The notes under the pieces: model-generated | Seen by the model: the letters and a program-made list of their open reading frames with translations, nothing else | Told to the model about the DNA's origin: nothing | Database searches by the model: none | Program-made: the position numbers and the translations under genes | Virus record (IMG/VR): IMGVR_UViG_2571042372_000008 | Source: a virus | Taxonomy: Duplodnaviria; Heunggongvirae; Uroviricota; Caudoviricetes | DNA length: 15,717 nucleotides | Reading direction: 5' to 3' (one strand) | Shown: positions 2,858 through 15,717 of the stretch, in pieces | How positions within the stretch are numbered: the stretch's first letter is position 1 | Layout: each line of letters starts with the position of its first letter

Positions 2858-3018
2858 ACCGCCCCCCGTTTATTATTTATCTCCTCAGCCAGCCGCTGGG
2901 CTTTCAGCGGATTTCGGATAACAGAAAGACCGTGAAATACCCAGCCTCGCTTTGTAACGGAGTAGACGAAAGTGATCGCGCCTACCCGGATATTATCGTG
3001 AGGATGGGTCATCGCCAT
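2830..3018 (-). CDS. Hypothetical protein, lambda orf60a-like
   Basis: 62-aa ORF whose start overlaps the exo stop, as lambda orf60a does. Confidence 0.5.
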
Positions 3019-3689
3019 TGCTCTCCAAATACAAAACCAATTTCAGCCAGTGCTTCGTCCATTTTTTCGATGAACTCCGGCACCATCTCGTCAAAACTCG
3101 CCATGTACTTTTCATCCCGCTCAACCACGACATAATGCAGGCCTTCACGCTTCATTCGTGGGTCATAGTTGGCAAAGTACCAGGCATCTTTTCGTGTCAC
3201 CCACATGCTGTACTGCACCTGGGCCATGTAAGCCGACTTTATGGCCTCGAAACCACCGAGCCGGAACTTCATGAAATCCCGGGAGGTAAACGGGCATTTC
3301 AGCTCAAGGCCATTGCCGTCACTGCATAAACCATCGGGAGAGCAGGCGGTGCGCATACTTTCGTCGCGATAGATGATCGGGGATTCAGTAACATTCACGC
3401 CGGAAGTGAATTCAAACAGGGTTCTGGCGTCGTTCTCGTACTGTTTTCCCCACGCCAGCGCCTTAGCATTAACTTCCGGAGCCACACCGGTGCAAACCTC
3501 AGCCAGCAGGGTGTGGAAGTAGGACATTTTCATGTCAGGCCACTTCTTTCCTGAGCGGGGCTTTGCTATCACGTTGTGAACTTCTGAAGCGGTGATGACG
3601 CCGAGCCGTAATTTGTGCCATGCATCATCCCCCTGTTCGACAGCTCTCACGTCGATCCCGGTACGCTGCAGGATAATGTCCGGTGTCAT
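3009..3689 (-). CDS. exo: Lambda exonuclease (Red alpha, 5'-3' dsDNA exonuclease)
   Basis: 226 aa. [50 protein letters not shown]... is near-identical to lambda Exo from memory. ATGA overlap with bet. Confidence 0.95.
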
Positions 3690-4992: not shown

Positions 4993-5125
4993 TTTTTGGG
5001 ACTCCTGGCTGATTAAGTATGTCGATAAGGCGTTTCCATCCGTCACGTAATTTACGGGTGATTCGTTCAAGTAAAGATTCGGAAGGGCAGCCAGCAACAG
5101 GCCACCCTGCAATGGCATATTGCAT
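4961..5125 (-). CDS. cIII: CIII (FtsH inhibitor that stabilises CII)
   Basis: Hand translation from the ATG at 5123-5125 gives [54 protein letters not shown] (54 aa), near-identical to lambda CIII. It is missing from the ORF track because the overlapping kil-frame ORF was the one listed there. Confidence 0.85.
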   Translation of the reverse strand: MQYAIAGWPVAGCPSESLLERITRKLRDGWKRLIDILNQPGVPKNGSNNYGYPD

Positions 5126-5197
5126 GGTGTGCTCCTTATTTATACATAACGAAAAACGCCTCGAGTGAAGCGTAATTGGTATGCGGTAACGCCGCGC

Positions 5198-10273: not shown

Positions 10274-10720
10274 ATGACAAATACAGCAAAAATACTCAAC
10301 TTCTGCAGAGGTAACTTTGCCAAACAGGAGCGTAATGTGGCAGATCTCGATGATGGTTACGCCAGACTATCAAATATGCTGCTTGAGGCTTATTCAGGCG
10401 CAGATCTGACCAAGCGACAGTTTAAAGTGCTGCTTGCCATTCTGCGTAAAACCTATGGATGGAATAAACCAATGGACAGAATCACCGATTCTCAACTTAG
10501 CGAGATTACAAAGTTACCCGTCAAACGGTGCAATGAAGCCAAGTTAGAACTCGTCAGAATGAATATTATCAAGCAGCAAGGCGGCATGTTTGGACCAAAT
10601 AAAAACATCTCAGAATGGTGTATCCCTCAAAACGAGGGAAAATCCCCTAAAACGAGGGATAAAACATCCCTCAAATTGGGGGATTGCTATCCCTCAAAAC
10701 AGGGGGACACAAAAGACTGA
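10274..10720 (+). pseudogene. O: Replication initiator O, truncated after codon 148 by IS insertion; stop codon supplied by the IS terminus
   Basis: MTNTAKILNFCRGNFAKQERNVADLDDGYARLSNMLLEAY... matches the lambda O N-terminal domain from memory. The reading frame runs into TGA at 10718-10720, the first three bases of the IS left inverted repeat. Confidence 0.85.
10623..10707 (+). repeat. ori-lambda iterons (four O-binding repeats)
   Basis: Four direct repeats: TCCCTCAAAACGAGGGA (10623-10639), TCCCCTAAAACGAGGGA (10643-10659), TCCCTCAAATTGGGGGA (10667-10683), TCCCTCAAAACAGGGGGA (10690-10707). The AT-rich ori segment that follows in lambda is replaced by the IS. Confidence 0.8.
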
Positions 10721-10771
10721 ACCGCCCCGGGAATCCTGGAGACTAAACTTCCTGAGAAAGAGGTAAACAGG

Positions 10772-11098
10772 ATGACTAAAAATACTCGTTTTTCCCCCGA
10801 AGTCCGTCAACGGGCAGTCCGTATGGTTCTGGAAAGTCAGAGCGAATATGACTCACAATGGGCGACAATTTGTTCCATTGCTCCAAAGATTGGCTGTACG
10901 CCGGAGACTCTGCGTGTCTGGGTTCGCCAGCATGAGCGGGATACCGGGGGCGGTGATGGAGGGCTCACCACCGCTGAACGTCAGCGTCTGAAAGAGCTGG
11001 AACGTGAAAATCGTGAACTGCGCCGCAGTAACGATATCCTTCGCCAGGCTTCCGCTTATTTTGCGAAGGCGGAGTTCGACCGCCTCTGGAAAAAATGA
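10772..11098 (+). CDS. IS3-family transposase OrfA (HTH/leucine-zipper part)
   Basis: 108 aa, [57 protein letters not shown]..., matches IS629 OrfA from memory. Confidence 0.9.
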
Positions 11099-11985
11099 TG
11101 CCACTGCTGGATAAGCTGCGTGAGCAGTACGGGGTCGGACCGCTATGCAGCGAACTGCATATTGCCCCGTCAACGTATTACCACTGTCAGCAACAGCGAC
11201 ATCATCCGGATAAACGCAGTGCCCGTGCGCAGCGCGATGACTGGCTGAAGAAAGAGATACAGCGCGTATACGATGAAAATCACAAGGTATACGGTGTGCG
11301 TAAAGTCTGGCGTCAGTTGTTACGGGAAGGTATCAGAGTGGCCAGATGCACTGTGGCACGTCTCATGGCGGTTATGGGACTTGCCGGTGTTCTCCGGGGT
11401 AAAAAGGTCCGTACGACCATCAGCCGGAAAGCCGTTGCCGCAGGCGACCGCGTAAACCGTCAGTTCGTGGCAGAACGACCTGACCAGCTGTGGGTGGCTG
11501 ATTTTACTTACGTCAGCACATGGCGGGGCTTCGTCTATGTGGCGTTCATCATTGATGTGTTTGCCGGATACATCGTGGGGTGGCGGGTCTCATCGTCCAT
11601 GGAAACGACATTCGTGCTGGATGCACTGGAGCAGGCGTTATGGGCCCGTCGACCGTCCGGCACGGTCCATCACAGTGATAAAGGTTCTCAGTATGTATCG
11701 CTGGCCTACACACAGCGGCTTAAGGAAGCCGGATTACTGGCATCAACAGGAAGTACAGGCGACTCGTATGACAACGCGATGGCGGAGAGCATCAATGGTC
11801 TTTACAAAGCGGAGGTAATACACCGTAAGAGCTGGAAAAACCGTGCAGAAGTGGAACTGGCCACACTCACGTGGGTGGACTGGTATAACAATCGACGATT
11901 GCTGGAAAGGCTGGGCCATACTCCTCCGGCAGAAGCAGAAAAAGCTTATTATGCTTCCATCGGAAACGATGATCTGGCAGCCTGA
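11095..11985 (+). CDS. IS3-family transposase OrfB (DDE catalytic domain)
   Basis: 296 aa in the -1 frame relative to OrfA, overlapping at ATGA (11095-11098). Integrase-core-like region (WVADFTYV...HHSDKGSQY...DNAMAES). Confidence 0.9.
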
Positions 11986-12107
11986 GTTCACAGATAAAAC
12001 ACTCTCCAGGAAACCCGGGGCGGTTCAGAGATAACAATCAACTAATACTGTTTTGTTGATTTTTGCTTGTAATTGGCGTTCTGGTCTGATTTTTGTGGAG
12101 TAAGTTG

Positions 12108-12491
12108 ATGCGTGATATTCAGATGGTTCTTGAGCGTTGGGGTGCGTGGGCGGCTAATAATCATGAAGATGTGACCTGGTCGTCCATTGCCGCCGGTTTT
12201 AAGGGATTAATTCCTTCAAAAGTAAAATCTCGCCCGCAATGTTGTGACGATGACGCGATGATCATTTGCGGGTGCATGGCCCGTCTGAAAAAGAACAACA
12301 GCGATTTACACGATTTATTAGTAGATTATTATGTATGTGGTATGACATTCATGTCACTGGCAAGTAAGCATTGCTGCTCGGATGGTTATATCGGGAAAAG
12401 GTTACAGAAGGCTGAGGGCATAATTGAAGGGATGTTAATGGCATTAGATATCCGGTTAGATATGGATATCGTTGCTAATAATTCTAATTGA
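12108..12491 (+). CDS. Q: Late-gene antiterminator Q (phage 82 / DLP12 QuuD type)
   Basis: 127 aa from the ATG at 12108, preceded by GGAG; the track ORF begins at an upstream [37 protein letters not shown]... matches DLP12 QuuD / Q82-family from memory. Cys-rich segment [12 protein letters not shown]. Confidence 0.8.
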
Positions 12492-12511
12492 TATGCAATT
12501 GTTTACTAAAA

Positions 12512-12542
12512 GTTATTAAAAATGGGGCGTGGAAACGCCCCC
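12512..12542 (-). terminator. Candidate intrinsic terminator for the porin transcript
   Basis: GGGGCG-TGGAAA-CGCCCC hairpin (12524-12541); on the minus strand it is followed by AUUUUUAAU. Confidence 0.45.
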
Positions 12543-12630
12543 AAAATAAAGGGTAATATATAACAGAAGGTTTATATAGTAAGAAGCAAGGTAGTGCTTC
12601 TAAAGGAAGTGGCTTGAGGGCTCCACTTAT

Positions 12631-12669
12631 ATGTTGCGGAGGCAAAGCCTCCCGCAACATATCTTTTTC
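12631..12669 (+). terminator. Candidate intrinsic terminator for rightward transcription from the Q region (possible tR')
   Basis: 13/14-bp stem ATGTTGCGGAGGC-AAA-GCCTCCCGCAACAT with one bulge, followed by CTTTTT at 12663-12668; ends about 10 nt before the convergent porin stop. Confidence 0.55.
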
Positions 12670-12679
12670 GTAAGTCAGA

Positions 12680-13762
12680 TTAGAACTGATAAACCAGACC
12701 TACAGCGACGATGTCGTCGGTATCAATACCAGCTGTTTTGGTAAACTTACTATCGTCAATTAAGTTGATTTTGTAATCAACAAAAGTGGACATGTTTTTA
12801 TTAAAGTAGTAAGTAGCACCGACATCGACATACTTGACTAAGTCTCGGTCACCATGAACACCAAGGTCTTTACCTTTTGACTGAAGGTAAGCAACAGATG
12901 GACGCAGACCGAAGTCAAACTGATATTGTGCTACTGCTTCAAAGTTTTGTGCTTTGTTTGCAATATGGTTATTACCAAAAACGGTCATATTCTGAGTTTC
13001 AGAATATGTGGTAGCCAGATAGATATTGTTCGCATCATATTTCAGGCCTGCAGCCCATACTTCCGCATTTTTGCCGGAGGCATTGAATTTGCTCTTACCA
13101 TAGGCGACCTGACCGTCAGTGCGATCTGATTTAGCATAGGTTGCACCCACGCCGAATCCTTCATACTCATAAGTAGTGGAGAAACCGAAACCATCACCAT
13201 TGGCTTCAGTTACGTCAGTGCGGTCATTTTTACCCTGATACTGAGCAGCAAAGTTCAGGCCATCGACCAGACCAAAGAAGTCGTTGTTACGATAAGTTGC
13301 AACACCAGTAGTGCGACCAGTCATGAACACATCTGTTTGGGTCCAGGTATCACCACCGAATTCTGGCAGAACGTCAGTCCACGCACCGATGTCGTATGCT
13401 ACACCGTAGTTACGGCCGTAATCGATTGAGCCGTAATCACCAAATTTCAGGCCTGCAAATGCAAGACGGGTTTTGTCTTTGGAAGAACCTTGAGATTCAG
13501 CACGGTTGCCTTTGAATTCATATTCCCACTGACCGAAACCAGTCAGTTGATCGTTGATTTGGGTTTCACCTTTGAAGCCAAGACGGGCATAAGTAGTATC
13601 ACCATCATCTGCATCATTAGAGGAGAAGTAGTGCTTGGCATTAACTTTCCCGTATAGATCCAGCTTGTTACTGTCTTTATTATAAATTTCAGCTGCCTGA
13701 GCAGACATCGCCATCAGTACTGATGCAGCTACAGCAGAAATTGCCACTGTTAATTTTTTCAT
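12680..13762 (-). CDS. Outer-membrane general porin, OmpC/OmpF/PhoE family (NmpC/Lc-like prophage porin)
   Basis: 360 aa from the ATG at 13760-13762. Signal peptide [23 protein letters not shown] then [16 protein letters not shown]..., and C-terminal ...VAVGLVYQF ending in F, typical of 16-strand porins. Matches DLP12 NmpC / PA-2 Lc from memory. The track ORF extends 20 codons upstream. Confidence 0.9.
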
Positions 13763-14189
13763 TGTACGCCCTTTTTTTGAACTATTATTAAAAAATGATG
13801 TCACTGCGCGATAAATATTCATCTAATCAATGTGATTATTTCAAGATGTAAGTTTTAGTTTCTCATTTAATTTGTGAAGTAGATCTCTATTTTTATCTGA
13901 ACCTTTTCTATCTAATCCTATTCATGGCTCTTGTCTGAACAAAAATAAATCTATTAGCTAATTTATATTAATGGCACTTATTTATAAGTGCTCTATAATT
14001 CTTTAGCTTAATTTAAACAAACTAAAAATAACATCGGAAATTATTAACTGGTTATTTGTTGAAGTTTTCTTATGCATTTGTGGTGGTGTTTTGAACACTC
14101 GGTGGCATTCTCACAAATATCATTTAGTAGTTTACGTACGTAAAAAATTGGTTATGCTGTTAAGAGTGGTTACTTCGTCACACAGCTTA

Positions 14190-14219
14190 AACCCGCCGTC
14201 GAGCGGGTTTTTCCATTTT
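14190..14219 (+). terminator. Candidate intrinsic terminator about 130 nt upstream of the holin gene
   Basis: AACCCGC-CGTCGA-GCGGGTT hairpin (14190-14209) followed by TTTTCCATTTTTT. Confidence 0.5.
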
Positions 14220-14350
14220 TTGAGTCTCGATATTAGCTGATAACCCAATACCTGAGTTATTCACTGACTCCGAATCTGTTACGTTTCTGCCTTTATTGCG
14301 ATACGTAGTATCCCCTTAATTTACACCCGCTTTGTCTGCGAGGTGGGGTT

Positions 14351-14566
14351 ATGAAATCCATGGATAAGTTAACAACGGGTGTCGCCTATGGTACCTCAGC
14401 AGGTAGTGCCGGGTACTGGTTTTTACAGTTGCTCGATAAAGTCACGCCCTCACAGTGGGCGGCAATAGGTGTGCTGGGTAGCCTGGTATTTGGCCTGCTG
14501 ACGTACCTGACAAACCTTTATTTCAAGATTAAAGAAGATAAGCGCAAGGCTGCGAGAGGTGAATAA
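14351..14566 (+). CDS. Class II holin, pinholin type (phage 21 S / DLP12 EssD-like) with dual-start motif
   Basis: 71 aa, [26 protein letters not shown]...[35 protein letters not shown]. Two predicted TM segments; Met1 and Met4 separated by a Lys. Stop overlaps the endolysin start (TAATG). Confidence 0.85.
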
Positions 14567-15060
14567 TGCCTCCATCATTACGAAAAGCCGTTGCTGCTAT
14601 TGGTGGCGGAGCAATTGCTATAGCATCAGTGTTAATCACTGGCCCAAGTGGTAACGATGGTCTGGAAGGTGTCAGCTACATACCATACAAAGATATTGTT
14701 GGTGTATGGACTGTATGTCACGGGCATACAGGAAAAGACATCATGCTCGGTAAAACGTATACCAAAGCAGAATGCAAAGCCCTCCTGAATAAAGACCTTG
14801 CCACGGTCGCCAGACAAATTAACCCGTACATCAAAGTCGATATACCGGAAACAATGCGCGGCGCTCTTTACTCATTCGTTTACAACGTGGGTGCTGGCAA
14901 TTTCAGAACATCGACGCTTCTTCGCAAAATAAACCAGGGCGATATCAAAGGCGCATGTGATCAGCTACGTCGCTGGACATATGCTGGCGGTAAGCAATGG
15001 AAAGGTCTCATGACTCGTCGTGAGATTGAGCGTGAAATCTGTTTGTGGGGTCAGCAATGA
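14566..15060 (+). CDS. SAR endolysin (signal-anchor-release lysozyme, phage 21 R / DLP12 RrrD type)
   Basis: 164 aa with an N-terminal Gly/Ala-rich weakly hydrophobic SAR segment ([19 protein letters not shown]) and a lysozyme core. Matches RrrD from memory. Confidence 0.9.
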
Positions 15061-15518
15061 ACAGAGTAACCGCGATTATCTCCGCTCTGGTTATCTGCAT
15101 CATCGTCTGCCTGTCATGGGCTGTTAATCATTACCGTGATAACGCCATTACCTACAAAGCCCAGCGCGACAAAAATGCCAGAGAACTGACGCTGGCGAAC
15201 GCGGTAATTACTGACATACAGATGCGTCAGCGTGATGTTGCTGCGCTCGATGCAAAATACACGAAGGAGTTAGCTGATGCGAAAGCTGAAAATGATGCTC
15301 TGCGTGATGATGTTGCCGCTGGTCGTCGTCGGTTGCACATCAAAGCAGTCTGTCAGTCAGTGCGTGAAGCCACCACCGCCTCCGGCGTGGATAATGCAGC
15401 CTCCCCCCGACTGGCAGACACCGCTGAACGGGATTATTTCACCCTCAGAGAGAGGCTGATCACTATGCAAAAACAACTGGAAGGAACCCAGAAGTATATT
15501 AATGAGCAGTGCAGATAG
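15057..15518 (+). CDS. Rz, inner-membrane spanin subunit
   Basis: 153 aa from the ATG at 15057 (ATGA overlap with the endolysin stop). N-terminal TM segment [20 protein letters not shown] then a coiled-coil-like region. Matches DLP12 RzpD from memory. Confidence 0.8.
15277..15459 (+). CDS. Rz1, outer-membrane lipoprotein spanin subunit, embedded in the +1 frame of Rz
   Basis: 60 aa. AAGGAG Shine-Dalgarno at 15264-15269. Lipobox LVVVGC followed by a proline-rich segment [15 protein letters not shown]. Confidence 0.8.
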
Positions 15519-15549: not shown

Positions 15550-15717
15550 TTATTGTGAGCAATACACACGCGCTTCCAGCGGAGTATAAATGCCTAAAGT
15601 AATAAAACCGAGCAATCCATTTACGAATGTTTGCTGGGTTTCTGTTTTAACAACATTTTCTGCACCACCACAAATTTTTGCTGCATCGACAGTTTTCTTC
15701 TGCCCAATTCCCGAAAC
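15550..15717 (-). CDS. bor: Bor-like outer-membrane lipoprotein (serum-resistance lysogenic conversion), 3' part only; the 5' end lies beyond the window
   Basis: Minus-strand translation ...VSGIGQKKTVDAAKICGGAENVVKTETQQTFVNGLLGFITLGIYTPLEARVYCSQ-stop matches the lambda Bor C-terminus from memory. Stop at 15550-15552. Confidence 0.8.
   Translation of the reverse strand, partial: VSGIGQKKTVDAAKICGGAENVVKTETQQTFVNGLLGFITLGIYTPLEARVYCSQ

Follow-up and report, generated by a model that had tools for sequence, protein, structure and literature searches.

The window analyzed here (the whole 15,717-nt stretch of the Caudoviricetes virus record IMGVR_UViG_2571042372_000008) carries a porin gene of the Lc/NmpC type on its minus strand (12680..13762), which encodes 360 amino acids and a stop, with the signal peptide at 13694-13762 and the stop codon at 12680-12682. 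The listing of open reading frames (ORFs) gives a longer minus-strand frame of 380 amino acids (12680..13822); its first 20 residues are a non-signal extension that precedes the porin start, so that the real coding sequence is 12680-13762. PGAP calls the same 1083 nt on a copy with 100% identity in Escherichia coli ATCC 11775. We also observed that the coding sequence is over-extended by 20 codons in some RefSeq phage records.

On the plus strand, the porin gene is preceded by a Q antiterminator gene of the quuD type (12108..12491; 127 aa, Pfam Phage_antitermQ E 7.7e-54), on whose identical DNA RefSeq annotates quuD and whose product distantly matches the structure of Q21 (6p18, E 4e-8). A lysis cassette (14351..15518, plus strand) follows, with an S21-type holin (14351-14566), an endolysin (14566-15060), and an Rz spanin (15045-15518); these correspond to Pfam Phage_holin_2_1, Phage_lysozyme, and Phage_lysis and match essD, rrrD, and rzpD of DLP12. 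The window closes with the 3' part of a bor/iss gene on the minus strand (15553..15717, ending ...LGIYTPLEARVYCSQ), a position annotated as Bor-like in phage ev017 and as iss in ATCC 11775. The bor gene, alongside which the porin had been named as a second conversion function, is present, but only its 3' 55 codons lie within the window, the rest being cut off by the window end. It should be noted that the prophage is defective, having lost the genes from P to ylcG through an IS629-like insertion and a deletion next to it.

Identity and Distribution of the Porin Module

Neither a frameshift nor an internal stop is found in the translation of the window copy of the porin, and the Pfam Porin_1 match spans profile positions 1-337 of 337 (E 1.9e-151). 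The NCBIfam subfamily "porin OmpC" matches with 521 bits against a cut-off of 484, and the protein falls below the NCBIfam equivalog cut-offs for PhoE and OmpF. Residues 24-360 align end-to-end with all 343 residues of the solved OmpC structure 2xe2 (E 6e-137), and the translation directly shows a Sec signal peptide that has an AxA cleavage site, PEFGG as the L3 constriction motif, and Phe as the C-terminal residue (...GLVYQF). By profile, structure alignment, and motifs, the predicted protein is a general bacterial porin of the OmpC/OmpF/PhoE class. It shares the Porin_1 fold family with OmpC, OmpF, PhoE, and Salmonella OmpD (E 1e-120 to 1e-137 against solved structures), and differs from these chromosomal porins in being prophage-borne and in having a CRP-associated promoter region. 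The original prediction of a complete OmpC-family porin with a signal peptide on the minus strand thus holds for this intact 360-aa gene between quuD and the lysis genes; the inactivating changes that might have spoken against it were looked for, and the ORF is uninterrupted and full length relative to both Pfam and the solved OmpC.

The lc gene of phage PA-2 was reportedly sequenced by Blasband, Marcotte and Schnaitman in 1986. Comparison with the deposited PA-2 sequence (GenBank J02580) shows that lc is placed and oriented as in the window with respect to Q, R, and Rz, with 91% amino acid identity of the porins; the 3' untranslated region (UTR) and the upstream region, including the annotated CRP site, are 93-96% identical. 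The proteins differ at 34 of 365 aligned positions, two indels included, and the differences are concentrated in a small number of segments of the mature protein, which we take to be surface loops. The window porin is an allele of PA-2 lc, not a new gene. A close relationship is also seen with the DLP12 (qsr') cryptic prophage of K-12, which has the identical gene order (quuD-nmpC-essD-rrrD-rzpD-borD), the same 3' UTR, and the same element resembling the late promoter pR'. The two prophages have been damaged in different places: K-12 nmpC is a pseudogene with an IS5 near its 3' end (leaving a 58-nt fragment after the IS), whereas the window gene is intact and the IS629-like element damages the window prophage upstream of Q instead.

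Based on the integrity of the gene, its homology, its anatomy, and its conservation, all observed here, the porin region is very probably the Lc/NmpC module for lysogenic conversion, carried by a lambdoid prophage resembling DLP12 and PA-2 and forming an independent minus-strand transcription unit between Q and pR'. It is flanked by the lambdoid Q and S/R/Rz lysis genes and encoded on the strand opposite to them, and its close identity to PA-2 Lc and DLP12 NmpC extends to the noncoding flanks. The porin unit also has the features of a moron: its own terminator, a promoter mapped in K-12, a slot that is empty or otherwise filled in relatives, and an atypical base composition, with GC dropping to 25% at 13750-14049. 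In its autonomous promoter-gene-terminator arrangement, its slot empty in relatives, and its expression from the prophage, as reported for the nmpC promoter in K-12, it resembles other lambdoid morons such as bor, lom, and the stx of 933W. The latter lies downstream of pR', however, whereas the window porin precedes pR' and is encoded on the other strand, and is therefore not under Q control as stx is. In 933W-type phages (VT2-Sakai) Q abuts pR' and the slot is empty; in phage Lambda_2E9 it is filled by a minus-strand Blc gene.

The module is widespread within E. coli, with 2503 of 5426 complete genomes carrying it, nearly half of those sequenced. It occurs with 100% identity in the temperate phages ev017, PhiR57_1, and others. 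A search of IMG/VR with the porin returned 80 loci, which add no diversity because all are 100% identical. An exact 22-mer of the IpeX region (the porin 3' UTR, described below) was found among the GTDB species representatives only in E. coli and in one 442-bp contig of a Streptomyces assembly, the latter presumably contamination; this search registers exact matches only and is silent on diverged homologues. The Lc/NmpC porin with its IpeX tail is already known from lambda-like prophages of E. coli, and because both the porin gene and the regulatory RNA were known earlier, the observation is real but ordinary. The module exemplifies lysogenic conversion of the cell surface in textbook form, a prophage supplying a porin together with an RNA that removes the host porins; such a swap alters which phages and colicins can adsorb, and the permeability of the cell to antibiotics.

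Promoters and Hairpins around the Porin Gene

The 5' leader and promoter region of the porin (13763..13900, minus strand) includes the spurious ORF extension (13763-13822) and a CRP-like site, TGTGA-N6-TCTCT, at 13873-13888, aligned with the position at which the PA-2 depositors annotated a CRP site; -10 and -35 hexamers could not be placed here by eye. For the activity of this promoter and the expression of the protein we draw on the literature: the start of the K-12 promoter PnmpC was mapped by 5' RACE, the promoter being active and having two Crp sites (PMC11677980), and NmpC protein was detected in 89% of outer-membrane proteomes of uropathogenic E. coli (UPEC). These reports bear on the possibility that the gene is a silent relic contributing nothing to the lysogen, as might be suspected from the split of K-12 nmpC by IS5 and from the loss of P to ylcG in the window prophage itself. 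Given the uninterrupted ORF, the conservation of promoter, leader, and 3' UTR, the active K-12 promoter, and the frequency of NmpC in UPEC outer membranes, we regard a silent relic as very improbable. A lack of expression in lysogens, which would have spoken against the proposed function, is likewise answered for the Lc/NmpC family by PnmpC activity in K-12 and by the UPEC proteomes.

A late promoter-like element, pR' (TTTACG, 16 nt, TATGCT), is found at 14131..14158 on the plus strand, adjoined by a motif, TAAGAGTGGTTAC, that occurs once and always between porin and holin. The element is 100% conserved in the window, PA-2, and K-12, and aligns with the "putative late promoter" annotated by the depositors of VT2-Sakai, where it overlaps the end of Q; it agrees with 8 of 12 consensus positions and is unlisted by the promoter scan, and its homologue is itself a depositor's "putative" annotation. 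Just past it, a tR'-like terminator (14189..14219, plus strand; -12 kcal/mol, z -3.1) was matched by the terminator scan and aligns with an annotated rho-independent terminator of VT2-Sakai; it is the presumed target of Q antitermination. Together they form the only copy in the window of the pR'/qut/terminator element homologous to 933W/VT2-Sakai (14131-14219), situated between the porin start and the holin. As this is the sole homologue, the porin lies between Q and pR' and outside the late operon; the original prediction had described it as antisense to that operon, which does not agree with a pR'-like element that follows the porin in the plus-strand direction.

In lambda and 933W, pR' immediately follows Q, and the window has a strong plus-strand hairpin with a T-run about 140-180 nt past the Q stop, a distance similar to the length of the lambda 6S RNA. 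It could thus be argued that pR' lies directly after Q, that this hairpin (12629-12669) is tR', and that polymerase modified by Q crosses the porin gene in antisense on its way to the lysis genes. However, the promoter scan found no promoter-like site in 12492-12630, and the single conserved pR'/qut/terminator homologue lies beyond the porin. Furthermore, the Q gene shares 75-77% nucleotide identity with 933W-type Q over nucleotides 14-348, and its 3' end diverges from 933W Q exactly at the position of the 933W pR'. Inclusion of the porin in the late unit is therefore very improbable. With the porin placed between Q and pR', only early-right transcription (from pR to Q) could converge on it, and in this window such Q-side transcription is doubtful because the IS629-like element and the adjacent deletion cut Q off from pR. 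The proposed convergent overlap of Q-side and porin transcripts is reflected in the arrangement of the hairpins, but is doubtful for this prophage.

The first of these hairpins is the predicted intrinsic terminator of the porin transcript on the minus strand (12513..12541; stem 12541-12524, U-tract 12523-12513), a match of the terminator scan with a 7-bp stem, 6 GC (-13.8 kcal/mol, z -3.2), followed by ATTTTTAATAA (as RNA, AUUUUUAAUAA). It lies 139 nt past the porin stop, in agreement with the roughly 140 nt expected; this distance is not a spacer, though, but the published ipeX region. The second is a candidate terminator of Q-side (early-right) transcripts on the plus strand (12629..12669), with a 15-bp stem interrupted by one bulge (12629-12662; -21.9 kcal/mol, z -6.9, none of 200 shuffles matching its stability) and followed by C-TTTTT-C at 12663-12669, the porin stop codon beginning at 12680. 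Its stem was missed by a simple terminator scan because of the bulge. On the minus strand the same sequence folds with -22.5 kcal/mol and forms stem-loop 1 of IpeX. The GC-rich hairpin and U-tract of an intrinsic terminator are seen on both strands, the plus-strand tract being CUUUUUC, with U4 in four of six variants. Both predicted terminators are found where the original prediction placed them, and because each has its T-run on one strand only, they are unidirectional and convergent; they do not bracket the porin as had been stated, since both lie on its 3' side.

Some observations speak against a role for the 12629-12662 hairpin in plus-strand termination. Its stem is conserved while the plus-strand T-run is shortened from T5 to T4 in four of the six variants, so that selection for terminator activity is not clear-cut. 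Published work describes processing of IpeX from a longer precursor (PMC12197685), and placing a strong terminator between nmpC and quuD in K-12 was without phenotype (PMC11677980), which fits little incoming plus-strand transcription. The hairpin might therefore serve only in the structure or processing of the porin mRNA or IpeX, for example as a 3'-end stabilizer or as the 5' stem-loop of processed IpeX. We consider this possible but the less likely explanation: a hairpin followed by T5 is a textbook intrinsic terminator, and in phage Lambda_2E9, where another antisense moron, the Blc gene, occupies the slot, Q is also followed by an independent plus-strand terminator. The two roles are, moreover, not mutually exclusive. 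We infer that the plus-strand hairpin with its T-run would halt Q-side transcripts that are not antiterminated before they enter the porin gene in antisense.

The Porin 3' UTR and IpeX

IpeX was reportedly described by Castillo-Keller, Vuong and Misra in 2006 (J Bacteriol 188:576). The porin 3' UTR of the window (12513..12679, minus strand; ~167 nt) is equivalent to this small RNA region: it lies between the porin stop codon and the rho-independent terminator, is homologous to DLP12, belongs to the same length class as K-12 IpeX (167 nt), and has 94% identity to it, the window copy being substituted at a few loop positions and at one position of stem-loop 1. Identity to the downstream regions of K-12 DLP12 and PA-2 lc is 94-96%. 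Five stem-loops are predicted, the last being the terminator, and the fold (-53.6 kcal/mol, z -5.9) is far more stable than that of shuffled sequences. Across six variants the mean column identity is 96%, above that of the porin coding sequence, and the variants differ too little for a covariation test of any stem. A search of the whole window against Rfam 15 (E up to 1) gave no match in 12492-14350, its only matches being an ALIL pseudoknot, the lambda cIII thermoregulator, and one chance snoRNA; IpeX is therefore not flagged by Rfam-dependent pipelines or automated annotation. The prophage small RNA svsR (PMC12247714), located at the 3' end of cI, is a different RNA and irrelevant to the porin region.

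The function of IpeX is taken from published work, according to which the 167-nt RNA of DLP12 is made as part of the porin transcript and represses OmpC and OmpF (PMC12197685; PMC5069750). Reduced host OmpC and OmpF are reported alongside prophage porins of the Lc/NmpC kind (reviews; PMC12197685, PMC5069750), and IpeX is the reported agent of this replacement. For the window, this suggests that a CRP-associated sigma-70 promoter of its own would transcribe the intact general porin from the minus strand, that transcription would run past the porin stop and then past the 12629-12662 hairpin, where a U-run is lacking on the minus strand, and that the transcript would end at the intrinsic terminator, ~21 nt away from the stop of Q. 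The resulting ~167-nt 3' UTR would be IpeX, acting as a posttranscriptional repressor of host OmpC and OmpF; with these repressed while the phage porin is made, the lysogen would trade its own major porins for that of the phage. The earlier proposal of a self-contained porin that is expressed in the lysogen and replaces the host general porin is thus right in essence, on the literature for the Lc/NmpC type.

Candidate Pairing of IpeX with ompC and ompF

A candidate seed in IpeX (nt 107-136; 12544..12573, minus strand) is complementary to the ompC leader at -31..-7, including the Shine-Dalgarno sequence, and to the ompF ribosome-binding site; by this complementarity we propose a candidate pairing with the ribosome-binding region of ompC. 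The ompC duplex would consist of 15 bp (one G-U), a 5-nt bulge, and 9 bp. Its gapped alignment score of 39.5 compares with 23.3 +/- 3.9 in dinucleotide shuffles and was reached by 13 of 3000, whereas the scores for ompF and the leader of the porin itself were reached by 45 and 2228 of 3000, respectively; the cofold ddG values are -18.3, -12.4, and -8.5 kcal/mol for ompC, ompF, and the porin leader. Only these two measures single out ompC and ompF: the longest exact complementary run is 10 nt and borderline (39 of 1000), a windowed duplex-energy test of the ompC pairing was not significant (7 of 40 shuffles), and global RNAduplex on the full sequences gave long, uninformative alignments. Against the pairing, Castillo-Keller et al. 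2006 reportedly found no simple complementarity, and Hfq-independence for ompC. The later literature on IpeX that was consulted describes neither a pairing site nor an antisense relation between Q and IpeX.

The candidate seed overlaps the ompC site paired by the 5' end of MicC, which the IpeX segment GUUAUAU...CCUUUAUU resembles, both being complementary to the same stretch of the ompC leader. The two RNAs have no overall homology; in contrast to MicC, IpeX has a 5-nt interruption, reaches over the Shine-Dalgarno sequence, derives from a 3' UTR, and is phage-borne, its pairing being predicted. We infer that pairing of nt 107-136 with the ribosome-binding regions of ompC and ompF accounts for at least part of the action of IpeX. 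In a more specific and tentative version, which we hold to be possible but rather doubtful, IpeX would be a phage-borne mimic of MicC: with stem-loop 4 opened, it would form 24 bp in two blocks across the ompC Shine-Dalgarno region, pair likewise with that of ompF, and spare the leader of its own porin; in intact phages, a Q mRNA ending at the plus-strand hairpin would have a 3' UTR fully antisense to IpeX, so that induction could neutralize or cleave IpeX. The candidate pairing, if true, would give a simple mechanism for IpeX. Both partners are conserved: the seed is invariant in the six variants save for one substitution and one difference in T-run length, and the ompC leader shows 99% identity or more in 4682 of 5371 genomes.

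The Lc/NmpC porin module

The minus-strand open reading frame at 12680-13822 is real, although its first 20 codons, when translated, are no signal peptide; the signal sequence begins at the ATG at 13762, which is also the start assigned by PGAP on identical DNA. The 360-residue porin (12680-13762) spans the entire Pfam Porin_1 model (E = 1.9e-151), passes the cut-off of the NCBIfam "porin OmpC" subfamily, and aligns with solved structures of OmpC from end to end, retaining both PEFGG and the C-terminal Phe; the gene is intact. It should be noted that the annotation of this CDS differs between records: RefSeq phage ev017 (NC_049948) uses the upstream in-frame ATG (1143 nt), which places 20 extra residues (13763-13822) before the signal peptide, and PGAP on ATCC 11775 uses the ATG of the signal peptide (1083 nt).

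The Lc protein of the lambdoid phage PA-2 (GenBank J02580) is 91% identical to this porin, with the differences clustered in a few gapped stretches, presumably surface loops. The PA-2 record also shows the same neighbours and noncoding flanks, and its depositor-annotated CRP site aligns with TGTGA-N6-TCTCT at 13873-13888. The cryptic DLP12 prophage of Escherichia coli K-12 has the same arrangement (quuD, nmpC, essD, rrrD, rzpD, and borD), with nmpC split by IS5. The feature is a copy of the Lc/NmpC module, which has been known since the 1970s-80s and is very common: Of 5426 complete E. coli genomes, 2503 contain the porin together with its 3′ UTR (coverage of at least 80%), and 2501 contain the Q-porin junction. 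Identity is 100% to the temperate Escherichia phages ev017 and PhiR57_1 over 12093-14566, and to E. coli ATCC 11775 across the porin-UTR stretch (12505-13900). In many complete E. coli genomes, the match is confined to 13722-13900 (the porin 5′ end and promoter; approximately 92-93% identity) and carries no gene annotation; such matches may be relics of porin modules since deleted. The sequence upstream of the porin (13750-14050) is very AT-rich (25% GC) and contains a consensus-like plus-strand promoter match, ATGGCA-17-TATAAT (13971-13999).

The family is expressed, the present copy being known here from its sequence. In K-12, nmpC has an active sigma-70 promoter with two Crp sites and a start site that was mapped by 5′ RACE, and most of the IS5 transposase expression there comes from this promoter (PMC11677980). 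Among UPEC isolates, 89% of outer-membrane proteomes contained NmpC protein (PMC9609314).

The ipeX region and its hairpins

The apparent gap that runs from the porin stop to the minus-strand terminator (12513-12679, minus strand; 167 nt) is the published ipeX region. IpeX is described in reviews as a 167-nt RNA of DLP12 that is made within the porin transcript under the phage porin promoter, is then processed out of it, and represses OmpC and OmpF (PMC12197685; PMC5069750; PMC7177473; PMC8065619). The stretch is 94% identical to the corresponding sequences of K-12 and PA-2, which are identical to each other, and 96% identical across six variants, compared with 87-91% for the porin coding sequence. 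It is predicted to fold into five stem-loops (-53.6 kcal/mol, z = -5.9). An Rfam 15 scan gave no match within 12513-12679, and annotation pipelines therefore leave the stretch blank.

The positions given for both hairpins in the original prediction hold. The hairpin at 12629-12662 has a 15-bp stem interrupted by one bulge (-21.9 kcal/mol; 0 of 200 shuffles as stable); CTTTTTC comes after it on the plus strand alone, the sequence that follows it on the minus strand being UAAGUGGAG. The minus-strand hairpin at 12541-12524 has a 7-bp stem with 6 GC pairs and runs into AUUUUUAAUAA on that strand only. As each has a T-run tail on one strand only, the two are unidirectional and convergent, and a Q-side transcript ending near 12670 would overlap a porin transcript ending near 12515 by approximately 155 nt. 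Both hairpins lie 3′ of the porin, so the gene is not bracketed by terminators as had been proposed, and the supposed plus-strand terminator is, on the opposite strand, stem-loop 1 of the IpeX RNA.

Candidate pairing of IpeX with ompC and ompF

IpeX nucleotides 107-136 (12573-12544) can pair with the ompC leader from -31 to -7, including the Shine-Dalgarno sequence, in a predicted duplex of 15 bp (one G-U), a 5-nt bulge, and 9 bp. Against dinucleotide shuffles (n = 3000), the gapped complementarity score of 39.5 for ompC (shuffles 23.3 ± 3.9) was reached by 13 and that of 33.0 for the ompF ribosome-binding site, complementary to the same segment, by 45, with cofolding ddG values of -18.3 and -12.4 kcal/mol; the phage porin's own leader scored 20.5 (2228 of 3000; -8.5 kcal/mol). 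Only stem-loop 4 is opened by the pairing in cofolding. The segment resembles the MicC seed, and the predicted ompC site overlaps that paired by the MicC 5′ end. The candidate seed is nearly invariant across the six variants; of 5371 genomes, 4682 have an ompC leader with an identity of 99% or more. The duplex-energy test for IpeX-ompC was not significant (7 of 40 shuffles), and the longest exact complementary run is only 10 nt; Castillo-Keller et al. in 2006 reportedly found no simple complementarity for IpeX. We regard this pairing as a candidate mechanism.

Position relative to the late promoter

Within the 528 bp that separate the porin start from the holin, an 85-bp stretch (14128-14212) is 78% identical to the region at the end of Q in Stx phages of the 933W type; the homologous stretch of VT2-Sakai is annotated with a putative late promoter, a Q-utilisation site, and a rho-independent terminator. 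Alignment to VT2-Sakai identifies a putative pR′-like element, TTTACG-16-TATGCT (14131-14158), the invariant block TAAGAGTGGTTAC directly downstream, and a tR′-like terminator (14189-14219), the last also detected by folding and terminator scan. The block (14131-14219) is 100% conserved among the window, PA-2, and DLP12. The window has a single copy, and all porin loci in which the block was detected carry it between porin and holin. Shigella phage SfII has a homologous site upstream of its holin.

The Q gene (12108-12491) is 75-77% identical to 933W Q over nucleotides 14-348, and its 3′ end diverges where 933W has pR′. Because of this divergence and the position of the pR′ block downstream of the porin on the plus strand, the alignments place the porin-IpeX unit as an insertion between Q and pR′, outside the late operon, where Q-modified polymerase could not transcribe the porin antisense. 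The original prediction holds as an observation and is right in outline as an interpretation, but overlooked a known sRNA and misplaced the gene as antisense to the late operon. At 2893-3574 of Escherichia phage Lambda_2E9, the slot that follows a related Q gene is filled by a minus-strand lipocalin (Blc) gene, and a plus-strand terminator (2992-3015) separates Q from it, which suggests recurrent insertion with a shared layout; the slot behaves as a moron site.

A strong terminator placed between K-12 nmpC and quuD had no effect (PMC11677980), suggesting that uninduced K-12 cells have little plus-strand transcription coming in from Q. The right arm of a lambda-like prophage makes up the window (left to right: exo/bet/gam, cIII, N, immunity region, cII, truncated replication gene, insertion sequence, Q, porin, lysis genes, and bor start). 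An IS629-like element of the IS3 family (10717-12028; 26-nt inverted repeats; orfA, 10772-11098; orfB, 11095-11985; ALIL frameshift pseudoknot, 11053-11169) lies between the truncated O gene (10274-10720) and Q, and the P-to-ylcG genes of intact relatives are absent; the prophage is therefore defective, with Q cut off from pR. The proposed convergent Q-side transcription is doubtful here and plausible in intact relatives. The IS629-like/truncated-gene/Q arrangement was found as a single 100% aligned piece only in strain FDAARGOS_1301; query coverage is also 100% in FY26 and NCTC11151, but as three joined pieces. A full-length match (88.5 bits) to Rfam RF01804, the cIII thermoregulator RNA element of lambda, lies on the minus strand at 5080-5138.
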